DNA of 45,609 nucleotides from assembly GCA_030873995.1 (NCBI GenBank), contig GCA_030873995.1_4701.1; one strand, given 5' to 3'. This DNA comes from a phage. The notes under the pieces are model-generated. The model saw nothing but the letters and a program-made list of their open reading frames with translations, was not told the DNA's origin and did no database searches. This document shows positions 2,393 through 27,686 of the stretch, piece by piece. The stretch's first letter is position 1, and every line of letters starts with the position of its first letter. A program made the translations under genes and the position numbers.

Positions 2393-3943
2393 ATGAGGCA
2401 AGACACCGACCTTGAATATGGTGGCAAGCGGTCTAAGATACCTAAGCTGTGGGAGAAGTTATCAACTAAGCGTAACCCATTTATGGATAGGGCTAAACAT
2501 TATGCCAGACTCACCTTGCCTTACCTTATGAATGAGGAGGGTGATAACAATACATCTCAAAACGGATGGCAAGGTGTCGGTGCTCAAGCCACTAACCACT
2601 TAGCTAACAAGTTAGCGCAAGTTCTCTTCCCTGCTCAACGCTCTTTCTTCCGAGTTGACTTGACAGCAAAAGGAGAGAAGATATTAAACAACAGAGGTCT
2701 TAAGAAGACCAAATTAGCTACGCTATTTGCTCAAGTAGAGACTGCTGCTATGAAGCAGTTAGAGCAGCGGCAGTTCCGCCCAGCGGTGGTGGAGTGCTTC
2801 AAGCATTTGATTGTTGCTGGCAACTGTATGTTGTACAAGCCAAGCAAGGGTGCAATCAGTGCGATACCGATGCATCACTATGTAGTTAATAGAGATGCCA
2901 ATGGTGAACTGCTGGATATTATCTTACTGCAAGAGAAGGCTCTCAAGACATTCGACCCTGCAACTCGCATGGCTATTGAAGTAGGCATGAAGGGTAAGAA
3001 GTGCAAAGACAGTGATAATGTAAAACTCTACACACACGCCAAGTATGAGGGTGAAGGTTTTTGGGAATTAAAGCAATCAGCAGATGATATTCCTATTGGT
3101 GAATCTAGCAGAATCAAGGCTGATAAACTCCCATTCATCCCTCTTACTTGGAAGAGGTCGTATGGGGAAGACTGGGGTCGCCCTCTTGCAGAGGATTATT
3201 CTGGGGATTTATTCGTAATCCAATTTCTGTCCGAAGCAGTTGCACGTGGCGCTGCTTTGATGTCCGACATTAAATACCTGATTCGTCCAGGTGCTCAGAC
3301 AGATGTAGACCATTTTGTTAACTCGGGAACGGGTGAAGTAATCACTGGCGTGGAAGAGGACATCCATATTGTACAATTAGGGAAGTATGCAGATCTAACA
3401 CCAATAAGTGCGGTGCTAGAAGTTTATACCCGCCGTATCGGCGTAGTCTTTATGATGGAGACTATGACGCGACGAGATGCAGAACGTGTAACTGCTGTAG
3501 AGATACAGCGAGATGCTCTTGAGATTGAGCAGAACATGGGTGGCGTGTATTCCCTCTTTGCTACGACCATGCAGACTCCCGTGGCTATGTGGGGTTTGCT
3601 TGATGCAGGTGACTCTTTCACTAGTGACCTAGTAGACCCTGTTATCATCACAGGCATTGAAGCGTTAGGTCGCATGGCAGAGTTGGATAAGCTGGCTAAC
3701 TTTGCTCAGTATATGGCATTACCTATGAGTTGGCCTGAGCCGGTACAGGCAGCAGTAAACTGGCCGGATTATATGGATTGGGTTCGTGGTCAGATCTCTG
3801 CTGAACTTCCATTCTTAAAGTCAGAAGAGCAGATGAAGCAAGAACAAGCACAGATGGCACAAGCACAGCAAGAGCAGATGCTTAATGAAGGAGTAGCTAA
3901 AGCTGTGCCGGGTGTCATTCAACAAGAACTTAAGGAGGCGTAA
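2393..3943 (+). CDS. portal (head-to-tail connector) protein
   Basis: 516 aa, T7 gp8-like size and position before scaffold and capsid; AGGAG RBS. Confidence 0.85.
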   Translation: MRQDTDLEYGGKRSKIPKLWEKLSTKRNPFMDRAKHYARLTLPYLMNEEGDNNTSQNGWQGVGAQATNHLANKLAQVLFPAQRSFFRVDLTAKGEKILNNRGLKKTKLATLFAQVETAAMKQLEQRQFRPAVVECFKHLIVAGNCMLYKPSKGAISAIPMHHYVVNRDANGELLDIILLQEKALKTFDPATRMAIEVGMKGKKCKDSDNVKLYTHAKYEGEGFWELKQSADDIPIGESSRIKADKLPFIPLTWKRSYGEDWGRPLAEDYSGDLFVIQFLSEAVARGAALMSDIKYLIRPGAQTDVDHFVNSGTGEVITGVEEDIHIVQLGKYADLTPISAVLEVYTRRIGVVFMMETMTRRDAERVTAVEIQRDALEIEQNMGGVYSLFATTMQTPVAMWGLLDAGDSFTSDLVDPVIITGIEALGRMAELDKLANFAQYMALPMSWPEPVQAAVNWPDYMDWVRGQISAELPFLKSEEQMKQEQAQMAQAQQEQMLNEGVAKAVPGVIQQELKEA

Positions 3944-4842
3944 TGTCTTTTGAAATTATTAATGAACCTGTAAGTCAGTCTGACGTTACTGAATCTAAGG
4001 AGGCTGCTGATGTTACTACTACCGACAACGATTCTACTGTTGATTCTTCTGGCAGCGATGTACAAGCTGACACAGGCAGTACAGATGTACAAGACACCAG
4101 AGGAGAAGATGCTGGAGAAGATGGAGCAGGAGCAGAGGCTGGTGGACAGGATGATAAATCTGAGCCAAATGACACCACAGATGCGCGGTTCTTCTTCGGT
4201 GAACAAGAAGTAGAGATTGAGATTCCTGATGACGTGTCAACTGCCTTGAAAGAGAAAGGTATTGATGCTATGCAGGTTGCCAAGGAGTTGTATGGCGAAG
4301 GTGGTAAATTTGAACTCAAGGAAGAGACAAAGCAGAAGTTGTATGATGCTTTTGGTAAGTTTGCTGTAGACGCCTACCTGAATGGCCTTAAGGCCTCCAA
4401 CGAAGCATTCATGCTCAAAGCTGAGACTCAAGCAAAAGAGGCGGAGGCTGCTGATGCTCAGCGCTTCACTGATATTGCATCTGAGGTTGGAGGGGAAGAA
4501 GGCTGGTCACGCCTTGAAGAGTGGGCGCTTGAAACCCTCTCGGATGAGGAGCTAACCGCGTTTAATGCTGTTATGGCCTCTGGCAACCAGTACCTGCAAC
4601 AATATGCTGTTCGTGAACTGGAAGGTCGCCGTAAGCAAGCGCAAGGGGACGATAAGCCGTCTCTGATTGAGCCATCAGCACCTGCTAAGGCTAATGAGGA
4701 TAACGGGCCATTAACTCGCGATCAGTATGTACATGCCATTGCAACTCTGAGCCAGAAGTATGGTAATGACCGTAAGGCTATGGCAGAAGCTCAGGCGAAA
4801 CTGGATGCCCGTCGCCGTGCTGGCATGGCTCGCGGTATCTAA
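3943..4842 (+). CDS. capsid assembly scaffolding protein
   Basis: 299 aa, very acidic, low-complexity N-terminus; start overlaps portal stop (TAATG); between portal and capsid. Confidence 0.75.
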   Translation: MSFEIINEPVSQSDVTESKEAADVTTTDNDSTVDSSGSDVQADTGSTDVQDTRGEDAGEDGAGAEAGGQDDKSEPNDTTDARFFFGEQEVEIEIPDDVSTALKEKGIDAMQVAKELYGEGGKFELKEETKQKLYDAFGKFAVDAYLNGLKASNEAFMLKAETQAKEAEAADAQRFTDIASEVGGEEGWSRLEEWALETLSDEELTAFNAVMASGNQYLQQYAVRELEGRRKQAQGDDKPSLIEPSAPAKANEDNGPLTRDQYVHAIATLSQKYGNDRKAMAEAQAKLDARRRAGMARGI

Positions 4843-4848
4843 TTCAGT

Positions 4849-4871
4849 ATTTACTGGACACTATAGAAGGG
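4849..4871 (+). promoter_or_regulatory. phage-RNAP promoter ATTTACTGGACACTATAGAAGGG (capsid promoter)
   Basis: Exact consensus; +1 G at 4866; followed by 5' hairpin GGGAGAAAAGTTCTCCC (4869..4885). Confidence 0.85.
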
Positions 4872-4921
4872 AGAAAAGTTCTCCCTAGTTATCAATTTGA
4901 TTTATAAGGAGATTATAACAC

Positions 4922-6130
4922 ATGTCTACACCGAATACTCTGACTAACGTTGCTGTATCTGCATCCGGTGAGGTTGACAGTCTTCTCATTGAGAAGTTTA
5001 ATGGTAAGGTGAATGAGCAGTACCTGAAAGGTGAGAACATTCTGTCTTACTTTGATGTACAAACTGTTACTGGCACTAACACAGTGAGCAACAAATATTT
5101 GGGCGAAACTGAGTTGCAGGTGCTAGCACCGGGTCAGTCTCCTAATGCCACCCCTACTCAGGCGGATAAAAACCAGTTGGTAATTGATACCACTGTCATT
5201 GCTCGTAACACTGTGGCTCACATCCACGATGTACAAGGTGACATCGATAGCCTGAAACCAAAACTGGCTATGAACCAAGCCAAGCAACTGAAACGTCTGG
5301 AAGACCAGATGGCAATTCAGCAGATGCTGTTAGGCGGTATTGCTAACACCAAGGCCAAACGTGACAAGCCGCGTGTTAAAGGGCATGGCTTCTCTATCAA
5401 CGTTAACGTAACTGAGAGTGAAGCACTGGCTAACCCTCAGTATGTTATGGCTGCGGTAGAGTATGCTCTGGAGCAACAGCTTGAGCAGGAAGTGGACATC
5501 TCTGATGTAGCTATCATGATGCCGTGGAAGTTCTTCAATGCTCTGCGTGATGCAGACCGAATTGTAGATAAGACTTACACTATCAGCCAGTCTGGTGCAA
5601 CCATTAATGGCTTCGTTCTCTCTTCTTATAACTGCCCTGTGATCCCGTCTAACCGGTTCCCTACCTTCGCTCAGAATCAGGCTCACCACCTGTTGTCTAA
5701 TGAAGATAACGGCTATCGTTATGACCCTATCGCAGAGATGAATGGTGCAGTTGCTGTTCTGTTCACTGCCGACGCACTGCTGGTGGGTCGTACCATTGAA
5801 GTGACTGGTGACATCTTCTATGAGAAGAAAGAGAAGACTTATTACATTGACACCTTCATGGCTGAGGGTGCAATCCCTGACCGTTGGGAAGCAGTGTCTG
5901 TAGTCACTACTAAGCGTAATGGTACTACTGGTGTCGCAGATGGAGAAGGCACAGACCACGCCACTGTTCTGTCCCGTGCGCAGCGTAAGGCTGTATATGT
6001 CAAGACCGCAGGTGCTGCGGCTGCATTCTCTGCTGCACCAGCAGGTATCCAAGCGGAAGACCTTGTAGCGGCGGTACGTGCTGTAATGGCAAATGACATC
6101 AAGCCGACTGCACTGAAACCTACTGAGTAA
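4922..6130 (+). CDS. major capsid protein
   Basis: 402 aa; own phage promoter with 5' hairpin upstream, strong hairpin terminator downstream; T7 gp10 position. Confidence 0.85.
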   Translation: MSTPNTLTNVAVSASGEVDSLLIEKFNGKVNEQYLKGENILSYFDVQTVTGTNTVSNKYLGETELQVLAPGQSPNATPTQADKNQLVIDTTVIARNTVAHIHDVQGDIDSLKPKLAMNQAKQLKRLEDQMAIQQMLLGGIANTKAKRDKPRVKGHGFSINVNVTESEALANPQYVMAAVEYALEQQLEQEVDISDVAIMMPWKFFNALRDADRIVDKTYTISQSGATINGFVLSSYNCPVIPSNRFPTFAQNQAHHLLSNEDNGYRYDPIAEMNGAVAVLFTADALLVGRTIEVTGDIFYEKKEKTYYIDTFMAEGAIPDRWEAVSVVTTKRNGTTGVADGEGTDHATVLSRAQRKAVYVKTAGAAAAFSAAPAGIQAEDLVAAVRAVMANDIKPTALKPTE

Positions 6131-16870: not shown

Positions 16871-17829
16871 TGAGTTACACATTCACTGAACATACAGCGA
16901 ATGGCACTCAAACTACTTTCCCCTTCCGGTTCGCTGGGAGAGACAAGGGGTACTTGAGGGCTTCTGATATTTTAGTTGAAGTAAGAAATGATGGCGTGTG
17001 GAACACGGTAAGTGGTTGGACACTTACAGGTACTAACCAGATAACCTTTAATGTACCGCCAGCGGCAAATACAAAACTTCGTATCAGGCGCGTTGTAGAG
17101 AAAGAAGAACCTTACGCCGAGTTTGACCGTGGTGTAACCTTGGATATGAAATCTCTCAATAACTCCTTTATACATCTTTTGGAAGTATCTCAGGAGCTAC
17201 TGGATGGTTTCTATCCAGATGGTTACTTTGTAAAGCAAGATGTATCTTGGGGTGGACATAAGATTACTGATTTGGCTGATGGCACAAATCCGGGAGATGC
17301 AGTAAATAAAGGACAGCTTGATTCCATCGACAAGAAGCATACAGATTGGAACGCCAAACAGGACATTGAGATTGCTGGTCTTAAAGCTGGTATGACTTCT
17401 GGTATTGCGCACAGAACTGTTCCTTGGTACACGATAGCCCAAGGTGGTGAGATTTCCGTAAAGCCCCCTTATGAATTTCAAGATGCACTAGTTTTCCTTA
17501 ATGGGGTATTGCAGCACCAAATTGTAGGCGCATACTCTATAAGCAACAACACTATCACTTTCGCAGAGCCGCTTGTGGCTGGTACAGAGGTGTATGTGTT
17601 GGTAGGTAGTCGTGTTGCTACATCTGAACCTAATATTCAGTTAGAGTTGAATTTTGACTTAGTAGAAGGCCAACAAGTAGTAAAGATTGGCTCTGCATTT
17701 AAGTATATTGAGGTTTATCTTGATGGACTATTACAACCTAAACTTACTTATCGGGTAGATGGTGACACTGTTACTTTCTCAGAGGGAGTGCCAGAATGCC
17801 GGATGACTGCTAAGATTATCACAGAATAA
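16870..17829 (+). CDS. tail fiber adaptor (gp17 N-terminal-domain-like)
   Basis: 320 aa resembling only the N-terminal tail-attachment domain of T7 gp17; no receptor-binding part. Confidence 0.7.
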   Translation: MSYTFTEHTANGTQTTFPFRFAGRDKGYLRASDILVEVRNDGVWNTVSGWTLTGTNQITFNVPPAANTKLRIRRVVEKEEPYAEFDRGVTLDMKSLNNSFIHLLEVSQELLDGFYPDGYFVKQDVSWGGHKITDLADGTNPGDAVNKGQLDSIDKKHTDWNAKQDIEIAGLKAGMTSGIAHRTVPWYTIAQGGEISVKPPYEFQDALVFLNGVLQHQIVGAYSISNNTITFAEPLVAGTEVYVLVGSRVATSEPNIQLELNFDLVEGQQVVKIGSAFKYIEVYLDGLLQPKLTYRVDGDTVTFSEGVPECRMTAKIITE

Positions 17830-17838
17830 GGAGGTGGG

Positions 17839-17991
17839 ATGATTAACTCCGAACTGGTAGATAATGGTGTGAAGCTTGCGCCACCTGCACTCGTATCAGG
17901 TGGGTACTTCCTCGGTATCAGTTGGGATAACTGGCTCGTAATTATGACCCTTATTTACACAGTAATGCAAAATGGGTTGGTTTATTTATGA
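17839..17991 (+). CDS. holin, T7 gp17.5-like
   Basis: 50 aa, one TM segment; GGYFLGISWDNWLVIMTLIYTVMQNG resembles the T7 gp17.5 core as recalled; AAGGAGGTGGG RBS. Confidence 0.6.
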   Translation: MINSELVDNGVKLAPPALVSGGYFLGISWDNWLVIMTLIYTVMQNGLVYL

Positions 17992-18027
17992 GAAGGTCCA
18001 GACTATAAAGAAGAGGAGAAAAGCTAA

Positions 18028-18459
18028 ATGTACTCAGAAGTTGAAAGAGCAGGATACATCATAAGAGAAGATGGTGTTATCTTGAGCAAGAAGGGACAAC
18101 CGATGGTTGGTGCTATTCGTGAAAGAGGATACCGCACAGTAACATTAAGGATAGATAATAAATCCAAGACTTATAAAGTACATAGGTTGACTGCATGGAA
18201 GCATGTGCCGAACCCTCATAACTATAAGGTTGTTAACCATAAAGACCGCAACCCATCTAATTGCCATAAAGATAACCTAGAGTGGTGCACTCAACAGGAA
18301 AACACTATACATGCACACTATGGTTGTCTTGACATACAAGATAAAATAGATGAAGCCAAAGCATTAAGAAGCCAAGGCTGGTCTTATCCTAAAATCGGTA
18401 AATACTTTGGGTTAGACCATAAGACTGTTTGGTATTGGATTAATGGGAGAAGAACTTGA
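18028..18459 (+). CDS. HNH homing endonuclease
   Basis: 143 aa; motif HKDRNPSNCHKDNLEWCTQQEN; inserted between holin and terminase small subunit. Confidence 0.75.
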   Translation: MYSEVERAGYIIREDGVILSKKGQPMVGAIRERGYRTVTLRIDNKSKTYKVHRLTAWKHVPNPHNYKVVNHKDRNPSNCHKDNLEWCTQQENTIHAHYGCLDIQDKIDEAKALRSQGWSYPKIGKYFGLDHKTVWYWINGRRT

Positions 18460-18755
18460 GCGTACATAACAAACATGCAGCTACAGAAGACGAGGTTGGC
18501 ATTCTGCATGGTGCTATTACCAAAATCTTCAATAAGAAAGCACAGGCAATACTGGACACTATAGAAGAAGACCCTGATGCAGCACTACATTTAGTCTCTG
18601 GTAAAGACATTGGTGCTATGTGTAAGTGGGTACTGGATAACGGCATCACTGCTACACCTGCTGCACAGCAGGAAGAGTCCAAGTTATCTAAGCGCCTCAA
18701 GGCTATCCGAGAGGCATCCAGTGGTAAGATAATTCAATTCACTAAGGAGGATTGA
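18456..18755 (+). CDS. terminase small subunit (gp18-like), start codon uncertain (TTG)
   Basis: 99 aa ORF immediately upstream of and overlapping the terminase large subunit. Confidence 0.5.
   Translation: MSVHNKHAATEDEVGILHGAITKIFNKKAQAILDTIEEDPDAALHLVSGKDIGAMCKWVLDNGITATPAAQQEESKLSKRLKAIREASSGKIIQFTKED
18547..18569 (+). promoter_or_regulatory. phage-RNAP promoter inside the terminase small subunit gene
   Basis: CAATACTGGACACTATAGAAGAAG; matches consensus from -14 to +6, diverges at -17 to -15. Confidence 0.55.
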
Positions 18756-20653
18756 TGGCTAAGGCAAGAGAATCACAAGCGGAGGCTCTTGCCAGATGGG
18801 AGATGCTACAGGAGTTACAGCAGACCTTTCCTTACACAGCGGAAGGTTTGCTTCTCTTTGCAGACACAGTTATTCATAACTTGATTGCAGGCAACCCTCA
18901 TCTGATTCGTATGCAGGCTGATATCTTGAAGTTCCTATTCTACGGACACAAGTACCGCCTCATCGAAGCGCCTCGTGGTATCGCTAAGACAACACTATCA
19001 GCAATCTATACGGTATTCCGTATTATTCATGAACCGCATAAGCGTATCATGGTTGTGTCCCAAAACGCCAAGCGAGCAGAGGAAATCGCAGGTTGGGTAG
19101 TTAAAATCTTCCGTGGCTTAGACTTTCTTGAGTTTATGCTGCCGGATATCTACGCTGGGGACCGTGCATCCGTTAAGGCGTTTGAGATTCATTACACCCT
19201 ACGTGGTAGTGATAAGTCTCCTTCTGTATCCTGTTACTCAATCGAAGCAGGTATGCAGGGTGCTCGTGCTGATATTATTCTAGCGGATGACGTAGAGTCG
19301 ATGCAGAATGCTCGTACGGCAGCGGGCCGTGCCTTGCTTGAGGAACTGACTAAGGAGTTTGAATCTATCAACCAGTTTGGGGATATCATTTACCTTGGTA
19401 CACCTCAGAACGTAAACTCTATCTACAACAACCTACCTGCTCGTGGTTACTCTGTTCGTATCTGGACTGCGCGTTACCCTTCAGTAGAGCAAGAGCAATG
19501 TTATGGCGACTTCCTTGCACCTATGATTGTTCAAGATATGAAGGACAACCCAGCACTTCGCTCAGGGTACGGGTTGGATGGTAATAGTGGTGCACCTTGT
19601 GCCCCTGAAATGTATGATGATGAAGTCCTGATTGAGAAGGAAATCTCTCAGGGTGCTGCTAAGTTCCAGCTTCAGTTCATGCTTAACACTCGCATGATGG
19701 ATGCTGACAGATACCCATTACGCCTGAACAATCTAATCTTCACCTCGTTTGGTACAGAGGAAGTCCCTGTGATGCCTACGTGGAGTAATGATTCCATAAA
19801 CATCATTGGTGATGCACCTAAGTATGGTAACAAGCCTACGGATTTCATGTACAGACCTGTAGCTCGCCCATACGAATGGGGTGCTGTCTCCCGCAAGATT
19901 ATGTATATTGACCCTGCGGGTGGTGGTAAGAACGGAGATGAGACGGGTGTAGCCATCATATTCCTGCACGGCACATTCATTTATGTGTATCAGTGCTTTG
20001 GTGTACCTGGCGGATACCGAGAGTCGTCCCTGAATCGCATTGTGCAGGCCGCAAAGCAGGCGGGTGTTAAAGAGGTATTCATTGAGAAGAACTTTGGTCA
20101 TGGAGCGTTTGAGGCGGTAATTAAGCCGTACTTTGAACGAGAGTGGCCTGTAACTCTGGAAGAGGATTACGCCACCGGACAGAAAGAGTTGCGTATCATT
20201 GAGACGCTGGAGCCGCTCATGGCAGCCCATAGGCTTATCTTCAATGCAGAGATGGTGAAGTCAGACTTTGAGTCGGTACAGCACTATCCGCTTGAACTAC
20301 GCATGTCCTACAGTCTTTTCAATCAAATGTCGAACATAACGATTGAGAAGAACAGCCTCCGGCACGATGACCGCCTAGACGCCCTGTATGGCGCTATACG
20401 GCAATTAACTTCTCAGATAGACTATGACGAGGTTACACGGATTAATCGCCTCAGAGCGCAGGAGATGCGCGATTACATCCATGCTATGAATACACCTCAT
20501 CTACGCAGGGCAATGCTATATGGAGATTACGGTACTGAGCGAAGAGTGACCAACACTTCCGTAGCGATGCAGCAGCGAGTTTACGGGCAGAACTGCCGAA
20601 ATAAATCGGCAAGCAGAAATACACTTTCTGCAAGGATTTCAAGGACTTATTAA
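18755..20653 (+). CDS. terminase large subunit
   Basis: 632 aa, T7 gp19-like; AAGGAGG RBS; start overlaps upstream stop. Confidence 0.9.
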   Translation: MAKARESQAEALARWEMLQELQQTFPYTAEGLLLFADTVIHNLIAGNPHLIRMQADILKFLFYGHKYRLIEAPRGIAKTTLSAIYTVFRIIHEPHKRIMVVSQNAKRAEEIAGWVVKIFRGLDFLEFMLPDIYAGDRASVKAFEIHYTLRGSDKSPSVSCYSIEAGMQGARADIILADDVESMQNARTAAGRALLEELTKEFESINQFGDIIYLGTPQNVNSIYNNLPARGYSVRIWTARYPSVEQEQCYGDFLAPMIVQDMKDNPALRSGYGLDGNSGAPCAPEMYDDEVLIEKEISQGAAKFQLQFMLNTRMMDADRYPLRLNNLIFTSFGTEEVPVMPTWSNDSINIIGDAPKYGNKPTDFMYRPVARPYEWGAVSRKIMYIDPAGGGKNGDETGVAIIFLHGTFIYVYQCFGVPGGYRESSLNRIVQAAKQAGVKEVFIEKNFGHGAFEAVIKPYFEREWPVTLEEDYATGQKELRIIETLEPLMAAHRLIFNAEMVKSDFESVQHYPLELRMSYSLFNQMSNITIEKNSLRHDDRLDALYGAIRQLTSQIDYDEVTRINRLRAQEMRDYIHAMNTPHLRRAMLYGDYGTERRVTNTSVAMQQRVYGQNCRNKSASRNTLSARISRTY

Positions 20654-20674
20654 TTACTGGACACTATAGAAGGA
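20652..20674 (+). promoter_or_regulatory. phage-RNAP promoter after terminase
   Basis: AATTACTGGACACTATAGAAGGA; +1 G at 20669. Confidence 0.8.
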
Positions 20675-20805
20675 AGGCCCAGATAATAAGAGAAATAACA
20701 AGGATAATATAGTTAACCTAGGTTATATAGGTTACTATAGTATGGGTGTACTCCTGTACACCCTATTCCTACTTACTATTTACTTATATGTATAAGGAGT
20801 ATTAG

Positions 20806-21087
20806 ATGGCTAATGATTATAGTGATCAACCTTTAACTGGTCGATATGACCGTAAGCAGATTACACCGACCAGTGAGGCATTAATGCTCCCTGTTGTTAC
20901 AGAGGAGTCTATTACGAAGAAAGCCAATGTTATCAATGATGCAACCAAATCTGGTAAACAGAAAGCAGCAATGGTATGTCGTCCTGTAGGTGGCACTCTT
21001 GAGGTTGCCATTGCTACTGGTAGCAAAGAGGATGCAGATTGGTTGTCTGTTAAAATGGACAGCGTTGGTCTTATTACACCGGCTTAA
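20806..21087 (+). CDS. hypothetical protein, tandem paralog A
   Basis: 93 aa; shares SGKQK(A/G)AMV...(V/I)AIA(T/R)GS...D.W with 21105..21392; AAGGAG RBS. Confidence 0.5.
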   Translation: MANDYSDQPLTGRYDRKQITPTSEALMLPVVTEESITKKANVINDATKSGKQKAAMVCRPVGGTLEVAIATGSKEDADWLSVKMDSVGLITPA

Positions 21088-21104
21088 TAAAAGGAGAAGA
21101 TAAT

Positions 21105-21392
21105 ATGTCTAAGTATGGCGATGCAGGTACGACTACTGGTCAGGTTTTTCGTGTAAAAGCAGTACAAACTATTGCAACTGCAATTCCTATGCCTATCGTG
21201 GCAGAAGCTGACCTTAAAAAGAAAGATCATCCAATTAATATTGAACACCTATCTGGTAAGCAGAAAGGTGCTATGGTGGTTGTAGATAAAGGAGATAGCC
21301 TTTATATTGCTATTGCGCGTGGCTCTGCACCAACTGACAAGTGGGATGCAACTACTATGGAGGTGACACCTGTCACTCCAGAAGGGGATTAA
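21105..21392 (+). CDS. hypothetical protein, tandem paralog B
   Basis: 95 aa, paralog of 20806..21087; AAAGGAG RBS. Confidence 0.5.
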   Translation: MSKYGDAGTTTGQVFRVKAVQTIATAIPMPIVAEADLKKKDHPINIEHLSGKQKGAMVVVDKGDSLYIAIARGSAPTDKWDATTMEVTPVTPEGD

Positions 21393-21394
21393 TA

Positions 21395-21739
21395 ATGCTT
21401 AACAAATACTTCAAGCGTAAAGAGTTCGCTTGCCGTTGTGGGTGCGGTACATCCACTGTTGATGCTGAATTACTACAGGTAGTCACAGATGTGCGTGAGC
21501 ACTTTGGTTCTCCTGTAGTTATCACTTCGGGGCATCGCTGTGCTAAGCACAATGCTAATGTAGGAGGAGCTAAGAACTCCATGCATCTTACTGGTAAGGC
21601 TGCTGACATTAAGGTACGAGGCATCTTACCTTCTGATGTACATAAGTATCTTACTGATAAGTACCAAGGCAAGTATGGTATTGGTAAGTATACCTCCTTT
21701 ACTCATATTGATGTACGTAACGGGTGTGCACGATGGTAG
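21395..21739 (+). CDS. endolysin, peptidase M15 family
   Basis: 114 aa; zinc-peptidase signature SGHRCAKHN...SMHLTGKAADI; start trimmed from ORF 21341 to the RBS-supported ATG. Confidence 0.8.
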   Translation: MLNKYFKRKEFACRCGCGTSTVDAELLQVVTDVREHFGSPVVITSGHRCAKHNANVGGAKNSMHLTGKAADIKVRGILPSDVHKYLTDKYQGKYGIGKYTSFTHIDVRNGCARW

Positions 21740-21847
21740 GTTGTGTTGCATGGTGTGAACGCATGGTTGCTAAGGCTTCAGAGGAAGGCAACTATGAAGA
21801 TTGGCAGAACTACTCAACTTTATTAGCTCAATGGAAAGGGAGATGCA

Positions 21848-21997
21848 ATGAAAAAGCTGTTCAAATCTAAGAAGGTTGTAGGTGCACTAGTTGCATTGGC
21901 AATTGCTCTTGTTTCTGTAGGTCTTGGTGTAGACCTTGGCTCTGGCACGGAATCCTCTGTGACAGACGTGGTCTGCCAAGTGATCACCTGTGAATAA
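21848..21997 (+). CDS. small membrane protein (49 aa), lysis-associated candidate
   Basis: Not in the 60-aa track; N-terminal TM helix; AAAGGGAG RBS; lies between endolysin and spanin candidates. Confidence 0.45.
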   Translation: MKKLFKSKKVVGALVALAIALVSVGLGVDLGSGTESSVTDVVCQVITCE

Positions 21998-22211
21998 GTT
22001 TCTAGAAGTGCTGGCAGGTCTTATTGGCCTGCTTGTCTCTGCTAAGAAGAAACAAGAAGAGAAGGAGGCACAAAGTGAAGCGAATCATGTTAGTGACAAT
22101 CCTGCTGATTGGTTCGCTGACCACTTCCGGGTGTCAGCAGGCGTTACCAGAGAAAGCAATGGTGAAACCTCTGAGGCCGACGCTGACGGAAGTTTACGAG
22201 GTAGACGATAA
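21990..22211 (+). CDS. i-spanin candidate (GTG start)
   Basis: 73 aa, N-terminal TM followed by charged region; overlaps the o-spanin gene; weak start signal. Confidence 0.35.
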   Translation: MNKFLEVLAGLIGLLVSAKKKQEEKEAQSEANHVSDNPADWFADHFRVSAGVTRESNGETSEADADGSLRGRR

Positions 22212-22284
22212 GGTCTGCTTTAGTAAGCCTGACGCTACAAAATTAGGTTTGTATATTCTTTCGCTAGAACGCGGATATAATTAA
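22075..22284 (+). CDS. o-spanin lipoprotein
   Basis: Lipoprotein signal VKRIMLVTILLIGSLTTSGC with lipobox Cys; GGAGG 7 nt upstream of GTG 22075 (alternative ATG 22087). Confidence 0.6.
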   Translation: MKRIMLVTILLIGSLTTSGCQQALPEKAMVKPLRPTLTEVYEVDDKVCFSKPDATKLGLYILSLERGYN

Positions 22285-22313
22285 TACATAGCTTTATGTA
22301 TCAGTGTCTTACG

Positions 22314-22336
22314 ATTTACTGGACACTATAGAAGAG
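22314..22336 (+). promoter_or_regulatory. phage-RNAP promoter for the tailspike genes
   Basis: ATTTACTGGACACTATAGAAGAG exact consensus; +1 G at 22331. Confidence 0.85.
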
Positions 22337-22415
22337 GTAAGATAGCGCCGTTCTTTTGAGCGGCCTATTACTAGCCAATCTTCATAGGGAGGGTTGGAAA
22401 GTAATAGGAGATAGC

Positions 22416-24314
22416 ATGGCTAAATTAACCAAACCTAATACTGAAGGAATCTTGCATAAAGGACAATCTTTGTATGAGTACCTTGATGCGAGAGTTTTAA
22501 CATCAAAGCCGTTTGGTGCTGTAGGTGACGCCACTACTGATGATACGGAGGTTATAGCTGCTTCATTAAACTCTCAGAAAGCTGTCACAATCTCAGACGG
22601 TGTATTCTCTAGCTCTGGTATTAATAGTAATTACTGTAACTTAGACGGTAGAGGTAGTGGGGTGCTAAGTCACCGTTCCAGTGCAGGTAACTACTTAGTA
22701 TTTAACAATCCACGTACAGGTCGCTTAAGTAATATTACGGTAGAAAGTAATAAGGCGACTGATACAACTCAGGGACAGCAGGTATCTCTTGCTGGTGGAA
22801 GTGATGTTACTGTAAGTGACGTTAACTTCTCAAACGTTAAAGGTACTGGTTTCAGTTTAATCGCATACCCTAATGATGCGCCACCTGATGGACTTATGAT
22901 TAAAGGCATTCGAGGTAGCTATTCAGGCTATGCTACTAATAAGGCAGCCGGATGCGTACTTGCTGACTCCTCAGTTAACTCCCTCATAGATAACGTCATT
23001 GCTAAGAGCTACCCTCAGTTCGGAGCAGTAGAGTTGAAAGGTACAGCCAGTTACAACATAGTCAGTAATGTTATAGGGGCAGATTGCCAGCATGTAACTT
23101 ACAACGGCACTGTAGGGCCAATAGCCCCTTCTAATAACCTTATCAAGGGGGTGGTGGCTAATAACCCTAAGTATGCAGCGGTTGTTGCAGGCAAAGGAAG
23201 TACGAACTTAATCTCAGACGTGCTCGTAGATTACTCAACTTCTGATGCTAGGCAGGCTCATGGTGTTACAGTAGAGGGTTCTGATAACGTCATAAATAAT
23301 GTGCTTATGTCAGGATGTGATGGTACTAACTCTTTAGGACAAGGGCAGACTGCTACAATTGCACGCTTTAGAGGTACAGCTAATAACAACTATGCGTCTG
23401 TATTTCCTAGCTACAGTGCTACAGGTGTTATTACTTTCGAATCCGGCTCTACCCGTAACTTCGTAGAGGTAAAGCACCCTGGCAGGAGAAACGACCTTCT
23501 CAGTTCTGCTAGTACTATTGACGGTGCAGCTACTATTGACGGCACTAGTAATAGTAACGTAGTGCACGCACCTGCCTTAGGGCAGTACATAGGTAGTATG
23601 TCAGGTAGGTTCGAATGGCGGATTAAGTCCATGTCACTCCCTTCAGGTGTTCTTACTTCTGCTGATAAGTACAGAATGCTTGGAGATGGTGCTGTGTCAT
23701 TAGCTGTAGGTGGTGGCACTTCTTCTCAAGTTCGCCTATTTACTTCTGATGGTACTTCTCGGACAGTGTCCCTCACCAACGGTAACGTGCGTCTTTCTAC
23801 CAGTAGCACAGGCTTTTTGCAGTTAGGTGCTGATGCAATGACCCCAGACAGTACTGGTACATACGCATTAGGTTCCGCCAGTCGAGCATGGTCTGGCGGT
23901 TTTACTCAAGCAGCATTCACTGTTACCTCAGATGCTCGGTGTAAAACAGAACCTCTTACTATCTCAGATGCCTTACTAGATGCTTGGTCTGAAGTTGACT
24001 TTGTGCAGTTTCAGTATTTGGATCGTGTTGAGGAGAAGGGTGCAGACTCAGCTAGATGGCACTTTGGCATCATCGCTCAGCGAGCTAAGGAGGCCTTCGA
24101 ACGTCACGGTATAGATGCACATCGCTATGGCTTCTTGTGCTTCGACAGTTGGGATGATGTATACGAGGAAGATGCCAATGGCTCTCGTAAACTGATTACA
24201 CCAGCAGGTTCCCGCTACGGTATTCGTTACGAGGAAGTACTGATATTAGAGGCTGCGTTGATGCGGAGGACTATTAAGCGTATGCAGGAAGCACTAGCTT
24301 CCCTGCCTAAGTAA
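22416..24314 (+). CDS. tailspike 1 with C-terminal intramolecular chaperone (peptidase S74-like) domain
   Basis: 632 aa; N-terminal FGAVGDATTDDT beta-helix signature; C-terminal SDARCK...WHFGIIAQ autoproteolytic motif; promoter 22314 upstream. Confidence 0.75.
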   Translation: MAKLTKPNTEGILHKGQSLYEYLDARVLTSKPFGAVGDATTDDTEVIAASLNSQKAVTISDGVFSSSGINSNYCNLDGRGSGVLSHRSSAGNYLVFNNPRTGRLSNITVESNKATDTTQGQQVSLAGGSDVTVSDVNFSNVKGTGFSLIAYPNDAPPDGLMIKGIRGSYSGYATNKAAGCVLADSSVNSLIDNVIAKSYPQFGAVELKGTASYNIVSNVIGADCQHVTYNGTVGPIAPSNNLIKGVVANNPKYAAVVAGKGSTNLISDVLVDYSTSDARQAHGVTVEGSDNVINNVLMSGCDGTNSLGQGQTATIARFRGTANNNYASVFPSYSATGVITFESGSTRNFVEVKHPGRRNDLLSSASTIDGAATIDGTSNSNVVHAPALGQYIGSMSGRFEWRIKSMSLPSGVLTSADKYRMLGDGAVSLAVGGGTSSQVRLFTSDGTSRTVSLTNGNVRLSTSSTGFLQLGADAMTPDSTGTYALGSASRAWSGGFTQAAFTVTSDARCKTEPLTISDALLDAWSEVDFVQFQYLDRVEEKGADSARWHFGIIAQRAKEAFERHGIDAHRYGFLCFDSWDDVYEEDANGSRKLITPAGSRYGIRYEEVLILEAALMRRTIKRMQEALASLPK

Positions 24315-24398: not shown

Positions 24399-26582
24399 AT
24401 GCTTCAAAGATTAGGGGCAATGTTTGTTCGGTACAAAAATAAAGTAGGTAATGCTATCGAGCGTACACTACAAAGTAAATTACAGGATGTAGTAAGTGTA
24501 AAGGATTATGGCGCTATTGGTGATGGAGTATATCGTTCACTTGGTGCTAAATTTACCACGTTAAGTATGGCACAAGTAGTATACCCGCATGCGGAAAGTT
24601 TAACTCAATCGCAAGATTGGGCGGCTATTCAGGCTGCACTTAATTCTCACTCAAAAGTGTACATTCCAGCAGGTAAGTACATGCTATCTGATACCATTGA
24701 GATGCGCGGCGGTCAAACTCTGCAAGGTGACGGTATTGATTCTTGGGTTGCAGGTTATGCTGGGTTTGTAAAAGATAATCAAGGCACTCACCTCATAATG
24801 GTGGGAGATGGAAATAAGAAGTATACATTAGATCATGTATCTAACTTCGATGTAGAAGGTGGTGTCATAGACAACCCAGCGAAGAGTGATGCTTATACTG
24901 CCACTGCACCTTCCCCTAATTACTCATTTACTAACTTCACTAACGCTAACGCCTCTGGTGCACAACGTGCTACATTGAAACCTTTCAGCGTAGCATTACG
25001 TTGCACAGGTCACGGTGGTGTTTATCTTCGTGACTTCCGTATTGTGCCTAATCACAGAGGGCAAGAAGGTTATAAGGATGAGTTGTCAACTGCATTAGGG
25101 GACGCATGGGATGTAGGTATTTGGCTGGAGAATACATCTGACTCAGTGTTATCTTCTGTGCAAGCAGTTGGTTACTGGCGTATTGCAGGTGTTATGAAGA
25201 CTTGTATTCCACAAGAGGGTTCCTTTGTTGGTGGAGAGCGTGATAGGATATACAATTGCACATTACAAGGTTATCGTGGTTTCTTAGCACGTTCGCATGA
25301 TACTTACCAAGTAGAAGAAGTATCAGGTAACACTGTATCGATTAAGTGGTCTGCATCTCACACTTTCGAACCTTCTGGTAAAGTTCGTATCCAAGGGAAA
25401 GACCGTAGTTATACTAGCCTGTCTGTATCTGGTGACAAATTAGTCTTCAATGGTATTGACGATGTATCAGGTATTAATACCAATAGCTATGTGAGAGTTT
25501 CAGGGTCTTCATTCGGAATGTCTGCTACTCAACTAAATAACACATACATCGCTGCATTAAACCATCATGCTCGCTTGCCAGCAACCTCTAATCTTTTAGA
25601 TAATAGGTTTTCTACTTCGGCAGCTTGCTATGAAGTTGCAGGTGAACCAATTCGTGCCATAAAATTATCTAACTGTACTGTCATTACTTGGGATGACATC
25701 TTAGGTATGACTGGTGGTATTCGGGATTTCCAGACGACAGATACTTACTTCGAGTCTCAGCCTTTCCGTACTTCTGTGCAAGGCTTGGCAAGCACCACAC
25801 AACCTGCTGGTTCTCGCATGATTGCACTTCGTGGACGTCAAGGTTCTAAAACTACAGGATATCAAGCTATCGGTTGTACTTATGGGCCAGGTGTAGACTT
25901 AAGTCCTCGTTATGAAAGCGATGTATCTCGTTACACAACTTCAGGTGGTATGTTCAATCCAAGAGAAGATTTGAACACAACTAAGCAGTTACCAATGAGG
26001 CAAGACGCTACTGAGCTATCTTCTACTTCTGACTTATTCCTTACACATGCTGTAGGGCGGAAGGCCTATGTTGGCGCTACCTCTGGTGATGCAACGCTTC
26101 AATCTAGAACTGGATCATTGAATATCCAATCAGGACTTCGTGTACGGATTGGTGGCACTGATGGTAGTGGTTGGTATATTGCTGACAGTGCTAAGTTGAC
26201 ACCTACTGCTGACAATGCAAGGGCTTGTGGACAGCCTAATGGACGATGGACTGTTGTCTATGCTGTTAATGGTACAATCCAGACTTCTGATGGTAGATTC
26301 AAGGAAATCCTTGAGATTGAACAGGCAGAACTTGATGCTGGTCTTGAATTATCAGCAAACCTAATTAAGTATCGGTGGAATGGGGAAGATAAAATTCACT
26401 TTGGTTGCATAGCACAAGAAGTGATGTTAATACTGGAGAAACATGGCCTAGACCCATTACAATATGATATGGTTCAGTATGATGAGGAGGCAGACATCTT
26501 TGGGGTAAACTATGCTGAACTCAACAGCTTCTGTATTGCAGCATTATCGAGGAAGTTAAATGCCATTAATAAAATCAGTTAA
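24399..26582 (+). CDS. tailspike 2 with C-terminal intramolecular chaperone (peptidase S74-like) domain
   Basis: 727 aa; VKDYGAIGDG signature; C-terminal SDGRFKE...HFGCIAQE; AAGGAGG RBS. Confidence 0.75.
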   Translation: MLQRLGAMFVRYKNKVGNAIERTLQSKLQDVVSVKDYGAIGDGVYRSLGAKFTTLSMAQVVYPHAESLTQSQDWAAIQAALNSHSKVYIPAGKYMLSDTIEMRGGQTLQGDGIDSWVAGYAGFVKDNQGTHLIMVGDGNKKYTLDHVSNFDVEGGVIDNPAKSDAYTATAPSPNYSFTNFTNANASGAQRATLKPFSVALRCTGHGGVYLRDFRIVPNHRGQEGYKDELSTALGDAWDVGIWLENTSDSVLSSVQAVGYWRIAGVMKTCIPQEGSFVGGERDRIYNCTLQGYRGFLARSHDTYQVEEVSGNTVSIKWSASHTFEPSGKVRIQGKDRSYTSLSVSGDKLVFNGIDDVSGINTNSYVRVSGSSFGMSATQLNNTYIAALNHHARLPATSNLLDNRFSTSAACYEVAGEPIRAIKLSNCTVITWDDILGMTGGIRDFQTTDTYFESQPFRTSVQGLASTTQPAGSRMIALRGRQGSKTTGYQAIGCTYGPGVDLSPRYESDVSRYTTSGGMFNPREDLNTTKQLPMRQDATELSSTSDLFLTHAVGRKAYVGATSGDATLQSRTGSLNIQSGLRVRIGGTDGSGWYIADSAKLTPTADNARACGQPNGRWTVVYAVNGTIQTSDGRFKEILEIEQAELDAGLELSANLIKYRWNGEDKIHFGCIAQEVMLILEKHGLDPLQYDMVQYDEEADIFGVNYAELNSFCIAALSRKLNAINKIS

Positions 26583-26999: not shown

Positions 27000-27686
27000 C
27001 CAAAGGTGGTCACAAAGTAACCAAAGTCAAAATTTTGATGTAGGCGTGTGTGAGGTGTCTCGCCCTCGCCCTCGCCGGGTTGTCCCCATAGGGTGGCCTG
27101 AGGGAATCCGTCTTCGACGGGCAGGGCTGATGTACTCCTTGCCTAGTACAAGGGAGGCGGAGTGAACGCCTGGGACGGCCTAGGGAATGGCTTAGTGGTG
27201 GACAAGGTGATTACCTTAGTGAAGCCTCTTAGTGCATTCCTTAGGCCATTCAGGGCGTTTATGAGGTATTGACAGGGTGGATGGGTGTGGGCTATCTGTT
27301 CGTTTCGCTACGCTTCACTCACTGCTCCTCACTTCGTTCGTCGCTGCGGTAGCCTGATGTGTACCTTAGGTTATTACTTGATGGATAGCTTAGGTTAGCC
27401 TTAGTGGATTACCTTAGTTAAAGCCTTAGTGCTTCACTTAGTATCAGCTTAGTAGTGTACCTTAGTCAGACTTAGTGTCTTCTCTTAGTGATTGCATAGC
27501 TAAAGCTATAAGATGCAAATAGGTCGCGGTCGGTAGACCGCTAAAGAAAGAGAATGGTAATAAGATGCAGTAGGAGGAACACCAGAAACCTAGCCAACCT
27601 AAGCTATCCTAGCTCTATATCTATTGCTTTTCCTTAGTCTAACACGTTAGACAACCTATCTTATTCTTAGTGATGGTAACTTAGTG

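Follow-up and report, generated by a model that had tools for sequence, protein, structure and literature searches.

The closest described lysis systems are those of the Molineuxvirinae phages K1-5 and K1E (Vectrevirus) and SP6 (Zindervirus). In these phages the holin gene follows the adaptor gene and, beyond the terminase genes, a pair of paralogs precedes the endolysin gene, two genes for proteins of 45 and 49 amino acids (aa), a 73-aa open reading frame (ORF) with a GTG start, a gene for a 69-aa lipoprotein, a promoter and the tailspike gene. The lysis genes studied in this work are located between positions 17839 and 22284 of a phage DNA stretch of 45,609 bases (contig GCA_030873995.1_4701.1), which as a whole is called the window. 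They are the same genes in the same order, with identities of 77–99%, except that the window carries a gene for an HNH homing endonuclease between the holin gene and terS, as only some relatives do.

Phage T7 possesses a homologous holin, encoded at the same position before terS, and its lysis genes are also scattered (3.5, 17.5, and 18.5/18.7 between the terminase genes). It likewise uses a two-component spanin with an outer-membrane lipoprotein (gp18.5/gp18.7). However, the T7 endolysin is the amidase gp3.5, which binds RNA polymerase (RNAP), whereas the endolysin of the window is an M15 peptidase encoded at the late end of the genome. The T7 spanin genes are embedded and lie between terS and terL, whereas those of the window overlap and lie past terL, and the candidate inner-membrane spanin subunit (i-spanin) of the window is half the length of gp18.5. 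The S-R-Rz/Rz1 system of phage lambda comprises the same three steps, carried out by a holin, a cytoplasmic endolysin and a complex of an i-spanin with an outer-membrane subunit (o-spanin) that is a lipoprotein. In contrast to lambda, the genes of the window do not form one contiguous block, the endolysin belongs to the peptidases and not to the transglycosylases, and the periplasmic domains of the spanins are much shorter (about 55 and 50 aa), with no predicted coiled coil and no cysteines in the candidate i-spanin.

An annotation made from the letters of the window alone, hereafter the original prediction, had described a split lysis system. The layout is real but not peculiar to the window: all SP6-like phages have it, the T7 genes are split too, and both the arrangement and the genes are already known as the published norm for SP6-like phages. 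Little is therefore contributed to biology at large. What is added here is a frameshift in the holin gene, an overlooked 45-aa ORF and the promoters, along with numerical evidence in favour of annotating the GTG-start ORF in all members of the clade. The value of these additions is mainly one of annotation, as the i-spanin, o-spanin and holin labels are inconsistent across RefSeq, GenBank and the published spanin census, in a group (phages of K1 and K5 capsules) that is in therapeutic use.

The lysis gene set of the window

The following features of the window are involved:

17839..17991, + strand: T7 gp17.5-type holin ORF of 50 aa (44 native residues and 6 out-of-frame residues)
17969..17972, + strand: run of four A (A4) with a one-base insertion, three (A3) in the aligned relatives
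17972..18064, + strand: displaced 3' part of the holin gene in the +1 frame, with the basic tail ...WFIYEKVQTIKKRRKAKCTQKLKEQDTS
21395..21739, + strand: endolysin, M15_3 zinc peptidase of 114 aa (PF08291)
21733..21870, + strand: 45-aa Cys-rich soluble protein (CxxWC...C; PHROG 1312, E 4e-18)
21848..21997, + strand: 49-aa single-pass inner-membrane protein (PHROG 4712, 'holin')
21990..22211, + strand: 73-aa membrane protein with a GTG start, the best i-spanin candidate (PHROG 9219)
22075..22284, + strand: o-spanin, 69-aa outer-membrane lipoprotein precursor (PHROG 8971 'Rz-like spanin', E 4.5e-39)

All the ORFs listed by the original prediction were found at their positions. Alignment to the full genome of Escherichia phage EC120 indicates that the window is a complete, circularly permuted Vectrevirus genome (K1-5/K1E/SP6 group); EC120 position 47 corresponds to window position 27359, near which the EC120 left end is situated. 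Homology was compared over positions 17700–22400. This segment shares 98.8% identity with EC120 and 86–96% with dozens of further members of Vectrevirus, such as K1-5, K1E, LL11 and ACG-C91, and it gives weaker matches to Salmonella (SP6 group), Klebsiella, Proteus and Citrobacter phages. The gene order is common to K1-5, LL11, EC120, SP6, UAB_Phi78, BP12B and the Proteus and Klebsiella relatives. The lysis gene set was found again in about 140 phage records and, therefore, the arrangement is no chance pattern.

The region probably encodes the standard three-step lysis apparatus of SP6-like (Vectrevirus) podophages, distributed over two sites as in all the relatives. The first site would be that of the T7 gp17.5-type holin, lying between the tailspike-adaptor gene and the terminase genes and presumably transcribed with the structural genes. 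The second would be a late unit with the paralog pair, the M15 endolysin, the 45-aa and 49-aa proteins and the overlapped spanin pair. Concerning the activities, which we infer, the holin would permeabilise the inner membrane at a set time, and the endolysin would escape through the holin lesion and cleave peptide bonds of the peptidoglycan. Outer-membrane disruption would then be the task of the 73-aa protein in the inner membrane and the mature lipoprotein of 50 aa, which together would span the periplasm.

The endolysin matches PF08291 (Peptidase_M15_3) over profile positions 1–108 of 108 (E 7e-33, 113 bits) and belongs to PHROG 894 'endolysin'. No credible homologue of the T7 gp3.5 amidase was found in the window by tblastn (best E 0.011 over 26 aa). 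The claim that the endolysin is an M15 peptidase and not the T7 amidase is thus well supported. Its SGHR motif and the zinc-binding segment H64-x6-D71 match the Streptomyces albus G zinc D-Ala-D-Ala carboxypeptidase (PDB 1LBU, MEROPS M15), which shares SGxR and H-x6-D with the phage enzyme, a member of the Pfam M15 group. This match is only local (40 residues, E 2e-4), the phage enzyme being a minimal single domain. The distal His, read from the sequence, is H104 in FTHID. The N-terminus (MLNKYFKRKEFACRCG) is hydrophilic and the whole protein is devoid of hydrophobic stretches. The enzyme is predicted to be cytoplasmic, with neither a signal peptide nor a signal-arrest-release domain, so that it should need the holin to reach the wall. 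A published account of SP6-like phages states that they have no homologues of T7 lysis proteins except the holin, and regards the M15_3 protein as the presumed endolysin; that this role had no biochemical proof as of 2016 counts against the apparatus proposed here.

The spanin genes and the inner-membrane partner

The original prediction had placed a lipoprotein o-spanin gene that starts inside the GTG-start ORF and extends beyond it, and this is what was found. The o-spanin begins at the GTG at 22075, six bases after the Shine-Dalgarno (SD) site AAGGAGG, and ends at 22284. Its start is in the +1 frame within the 73-aa ORF, with an overlap of 137 bases, and is located 77 bases past the 49-aa gene. 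The precursor consists of MKRIMLVTILLIGSLTTSG followed by the mature part of 50 aa (CQQ...). All of 24 unique homologues carry the SGC lipobox, with Q, G, S or A but never Asp at residue +2, which indicates an outer-membrane lipoprotein. The coordinates equal those of the K1-5 and K1E o-spanins of the census, and the family comprises those of K1-5, K1E, SP6 and UAB_Phi78.

The 73-aa ORF starts with a GTG that lies within the last codons of the 49-aa gene and overlaps its stop (TGTGAATAA), suggesting translational coupling. An N-terminal transmembrane domain (TMD), FLEVLAGLIGLLVSA, with a Kyte-Doolittle (KD) value of 2.2, is followed by a highly charged segment.

Frame-specific substitution statistics were obtained for the segment from 25 non-identical relatives belonging to four genera, with bootstrap 95% confidence intervals (CI). 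The GTG is conserved in all 25. In the non-overlapped part of the 73-aa ORF (21998–22074) the ratio of non-synonymous to synonymous polymorphism (pN/pS) is 0.36 (0.23–0.51) in its own frame, and 1.4 and 3.7 in the other two. By halves, the own-frame values are 0.48 for the TMD and 0.21 for the charged part. Polymorphic sites of the same interval fall at codon positions 1, 2 and 3 in numbers of 18, 10 and 23 (p = 0.001). In the overlap with the o-spanin signal peptide (22075–22134) pN/pS is 0.18 (CI 0.08–0.44) in the 73-aa frame and 0.72 in the o-spanin frame, the conservation being driven by the invariant 73-aa motif SDNPADWFADHFRV and not by the signal peptide. In the rest of the overlap (22135–22211) the values are 0.60 in the o-spanin frame and 0.97 in the 73-aa frame. 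Past the overlap, the o-spanin shows 0.14 in its own frame, and the 49-aa gene shows 0.27 (0.19–0.36) in its own.

These data, together with the conserved GTG, establish the GTG-start ORF as a gene, as had been proposed, and purifying selection was detected in the comparative data on every small ORF. It is highly improbable, consequently, that the small ORFs past the endolysin are untranslated and lysis depends on other genes. The GTG start of the 73-aa ORF and its lack of an SD site would fit that explanation. However, the purifying selection on each ORF is specific to its frame, the bootstrap intervals lying well under 1, the alternative frames have pN/pS at or above 1, and four phage genera have kept the start codons, the lipobox and the SD site. 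With the frame-specific data, all four small genes can be annotated on clear grounds.

Which inner-membrane protein is the partner of the o-spanin is less clear. The GTG-start ORF had been put forward as the i-spanin candidate; it stands as a conserved overlapped gene, whereas its partnership with the o-spanin is only partly supported, as published labels conflict and its topology is ambiguous. The Kongari et al. 2018 spanin census (PMC6139136) places K1-5, K1E and SP6 among the phages with 'separated' spanins and takes the 49-aa protein for their i-spanin. The 49-aa protein is also 'putative I-spanin' in the LL11 record and 'i-spanin' in the SP6 record AY288927.2. In that SP6 record, the 'o-spanin' label of gene 48 sits on an N-terminally shortened ORF of the 73-aa frame that lacks a lipobox, and the record leaves the true lipoprotein ORF (MKQIWLAMTLLIGSLTISGC...) without annotation; the two ORFs are 4608..4805 and 4672..4881.

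According to these labels, the 49-aa protein would pair with the lipoprotein encoded 77 bases downstream and the 73-aa ORF would have another membrane role. Several properties agree with this, and weigh against the 73-aa protein as i-spanin. The 49-aa gene has an ATG start and a good SD site, GGAG five bases upstream of the ATG. In its product five K/R residues precede the TMD and none follow it, which gives a strong prediction of an N-in/C-out topology. The two cysteines at its periplasmic C-terminus are invariant and the o-spanin has one conserved Cys, so that disulfide links would be possible. The 73-aa protein, for its part, has neither an SD site nor cysteines. A single K/R precedes its TMD and four follow it, the latter offset by four acidic residues, so that the positive-inside rule does not favour N-in/C-out. 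The AlphaFold2 model is of low confidence (mean predicted local distance difference test score, pLDDT, 60). It contains no coiled coil and only two short helices (3–29 and 38–45), the rest being disordered, and in it the juxtamembrane helix is highly charged (KKKQEEKEAQ). Finally, the last 25 residues or so are effectively neutral, as shown by the 0.97 value above, and some relatives end at residue 61.

On the other side, the 49-aa protein exposes only about 21 periplasmic residues, which end in a conserved CxxxxC(E). Combined with the 50 aa of the o-spanin they amount to 71, whereas the 73-aa protein and the o-spanin reach about 105 (about 55 + 50); the range given in the census is 62–300 (PMC6139136), and the sum of about 105 lies well within it. 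The curators themselves flagged the pair of 49-aa protein and o-spanin with 'Too small?' and 'Too short' (PMC6139136). In the same census (PMC6139136), UAB_Phi78, a close relative, is 'overlapped', with a 69-aa i-spanin. This i-spanin is a homologue of the 73-aa ORF (70% identity), and the UAB_Phi78 pair has the same architecture as that of the window, the difference being one of catalogue label only. Besides, the 73-aa ORF dominates the constraint on the o-spanin signal-peptide region and therefore needs a function closely linked to the locus. In two distant viral contigs whose M15 endolysins are 41–43% identical, TMD proteins of 70–75 aa encoded directly downstream overlap lipoprotein ORFs (L034, +12..+390; L035, +258..+609 past the endolysin gene), and these would be very short overlapped spanin pairs.

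Pectobacterium phage PP1 carries, after its endolysin gene, an unannotated 45-aa TM ORF (5819..5956) that is a relative of the 49-aa protein. From this ORF to the genome end, neither a lipoprotein nor a spanin pair was detected in PP1. The presence in PP1 of a related small TM ORF without an adjacent spanin pair suggests that the 49-aa protein may not be tied to the o-spanin, and it counts against the 49-aa protein as i-spanin.

Homology cannot decide the question. Longer or characterised relatives of the 73-aa and 49-aa proteins were sought in a collection of 5.8 billion proteins, and both families turned out to be short, unnamed and confined to the clade. Searches of the small proteins against Pfam, NCBIfam, PADLOC and PDB sequences gave nothing beyond the PHROG families, and pairwise BLAST of the 73-aa and 49-aa proteins revealed no significant similarity to T7 gp18.5/18.7.

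The data presented here favour the overlapped arrangement without proving it. We infer that the o-spanin partner is rather probably the 73-aa protein, while the 49-aa protein is an unlikely partner, the remaining cases being those of both or neither. Extension of this view to the whole K1-5/K1E/SP6 clade, with the 73-aa ORF, for the most part unannotated, as the true i-spanin, an 'overlapped' architecture and the 49-aa protein as a separate membrane protein of the lysis cassette, is held tentatively, as a proposal that falls slightly short of probable.

The holin gene, its extra base and the 49-aa protein

The tailspike-adaptor gene lies upstream of the holin gene, and terS lies downstream. 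The 50-aa ORF matches Pfam PF10746 (Phage_holin_2_2, 'Phage holin T7 family'; E 1.4e-16, 60.4 bits, cut-off 25.4) and PHROG 920 'holin' (E 9e-18), and it is 34–37% identical to T7 gp17.5. The original prediction of a gp17.5-like holin near the adaptor gene was therefore correct as to family and position. It did not hold with respect to the 50-aa ORF as an intact holin, since this ORF is truncated by a frameshift and lacks the basic tail.

The extra A of the A4 run is the only indel in the holin alignment of the window with EC120, 6948, ULINTec4, K1E (KY435490) and ACG-C91, all of them with A3 and a holin of 74 aa. The insertion is absent from the six relatives that match across its site. The EC120 holin is identical to that of the window up to residue 44 except at position 9 (N9 in the window, S9 in EC120), continues past residue 44 as ...MGWFIYEKVQTIKKRRKAKCTQKLKEQDTS, and its residues 44–74 match the window in frame 2. 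The truncated protein retains the hydrophobic segment, but the seven basic residues of the cytoplasmic tail (KKRRKAK...) are all gone; the protein ends at residue 50 with no basic residue past the TMD. This loss is a further point against a standard apparatus in this phage. In other holins, as known from work on lambda S, the C-terminal basic tail sets topology and timing.

A programmed frameshift at the A4 run was considered and ruled out, because the relatives encode the holin in a single frame.

An identical 50-aa holin is present in a third-party E. coli assembly at NCBI (HDT3156453.1) and, on a contig of 45,639 bases, in a Logan assembly, both derived from run DRR389944, and the repaired 74-aa sequence was not found in the same protein collection. 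The insertion is likely to be real. The opposite explanation, that it is a sequencing or consensus artefact and the actual phage has an intact 74-aa holin, is rather doubtful. It would account for a one-base change in a homopolymer, for the intact gene in the five closest relatives, and for the fact that, of the approximately 55 EC120 proteins compared, none but the holin is divided over two frames in the window; in addition, a single sequencing run underlies all the evidence. However, the same truncated protein was called in two independent assemblies of that run, a four-base run is short for systematic homopolymer error, and the rest of the genome is clean, which points to good read quality. 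A real insertion would probably change the timing or function of the holin, and the phage would then represent a natural holin-tail mutant of a virulent phage carried in a bacterial isolate.

The genome of this virulent Vectrevirus was recovered from data labelled Escherichia coli (run DRR389944), which suggests that the phage was carried along with the bacterial isolate.

The 45-aa Cys-rich ORF, which lies between the endolysin gene and the 49-aa gene and whose ATG overlaps the endolysin stop, had been overlooked by the original prediction. It is kept in most relatives. In-frame stops were observed in LL11 and in one IMG metagenomic contig, indicating that the protein may be dispensable. Fusion of the Cys-rich frame with the 49-aa frame was examined as a conserved feature and discarded, as it was seen in Proteus phage Pm5460 only and not in PM 116 or PM 85.

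The 49-aa protein, possibly with the 45-aa protein, could act as a second holin, an antiholin or another lysis-timing factor, a role that is compatible with the three-step apparatus but must be considered doubtful. PHROG 4712 and RefSeq label the 49-aa protein 'holin'; however, this label could be traced to no experimental basis and the protein matches no Pfam holin family. The gene is situated between the endolysin and spanin genes and is translationally linked to its neighbours. In Pm5460 the Cys-rich frame is fused in frame to the N-terminus of the 49-aa homologue, which fits a cytoplasmic partner domain, although its absence from the other two Proteus phages means that it could be an indel. 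A related ORF persists in PP1 without spanins, but the similarity is just 36% and resides mostly in the TMD. Were the T7-type holin truly truncated, another membrane lesion factor would be needed, and the 49-aa and 45-aa proteins as a second holin or timing factor could explain propagation of the phage despite the truncation.

Promoters and neighbouring genes

The genes and sites that surround the lysis genes are:

18028..18459, + strand: HNH homing endonuclease (PF13392), between the holin gene and terS
18456..18755, + strand: terS (PF11123)
18752..20653, + strand: terL, terminase large subunit
20652..20674, + strand: phage RNAP promoter (K1-5/SP6 type) at the terL stop, heading the cassette
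20806..21087 and 21105..21392, + strand: paralog pair (93 and 95 aa, about 39% mutual identity), between terL and the endolysin gene
22314..22336, + strand: phage promoter with perfect consensus (0 mismatches), just past the o-spanin gene and ahead of the tailspike gene

The K1-5-type promoter consensus occurs at eight sites in the window and at none in shuffled sequences; the six sites not listed above are at 4849, 33202, 35502, 40052, 40515 and 41661. The promoters at 20652 and 22314 bracket the cassette and, therefore, the paralogs, the endolysin and the small genes form a late transcription unit of their own. The promoter at 22314 would end the lysis cassette and drive the tailspike gene. 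Scans of positions 17000–22500 for intrinsic terminators and sigma-70 promoters gave numbers at or under the shuffle expectation.

The terminase, 99% identical to that of EC120, separates the holin gene from the endolysin cassette. The HNH gene is sporadic. It is present in K1E KY435490, ACG-C91, EC120, 6948 and ULINTec4 and absent from K1-5, LL11 and SP6, in which the 3' end of the holin gene overlaps terS. Since phages with the insertion carry a different holin tail, the insertion before terS appears to have remodelled the holin 3' end. The HNH slots around the terminase genes vary, the gene being located before terS in the window and between terS and terL in EC120 (2557..3000).

The paralog pair is annotated as 'acetyl-CoA acetyltransferase' in PHROG 2725 and RefSeq. 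Scans against Pfam, NCBIfam, PADLOC and PDB sequences gave no support for it, the PHROG family (2725) being the only match, and the label looks like a propagated error. PP1 has three copies.

The second tailspike gene of the window (24399..26500) shares only about 30% identity with its EC120 counterpart, whereas the genes on either side of it reach 96–99%, a divergence that indicates a putative swap of a host-range module.

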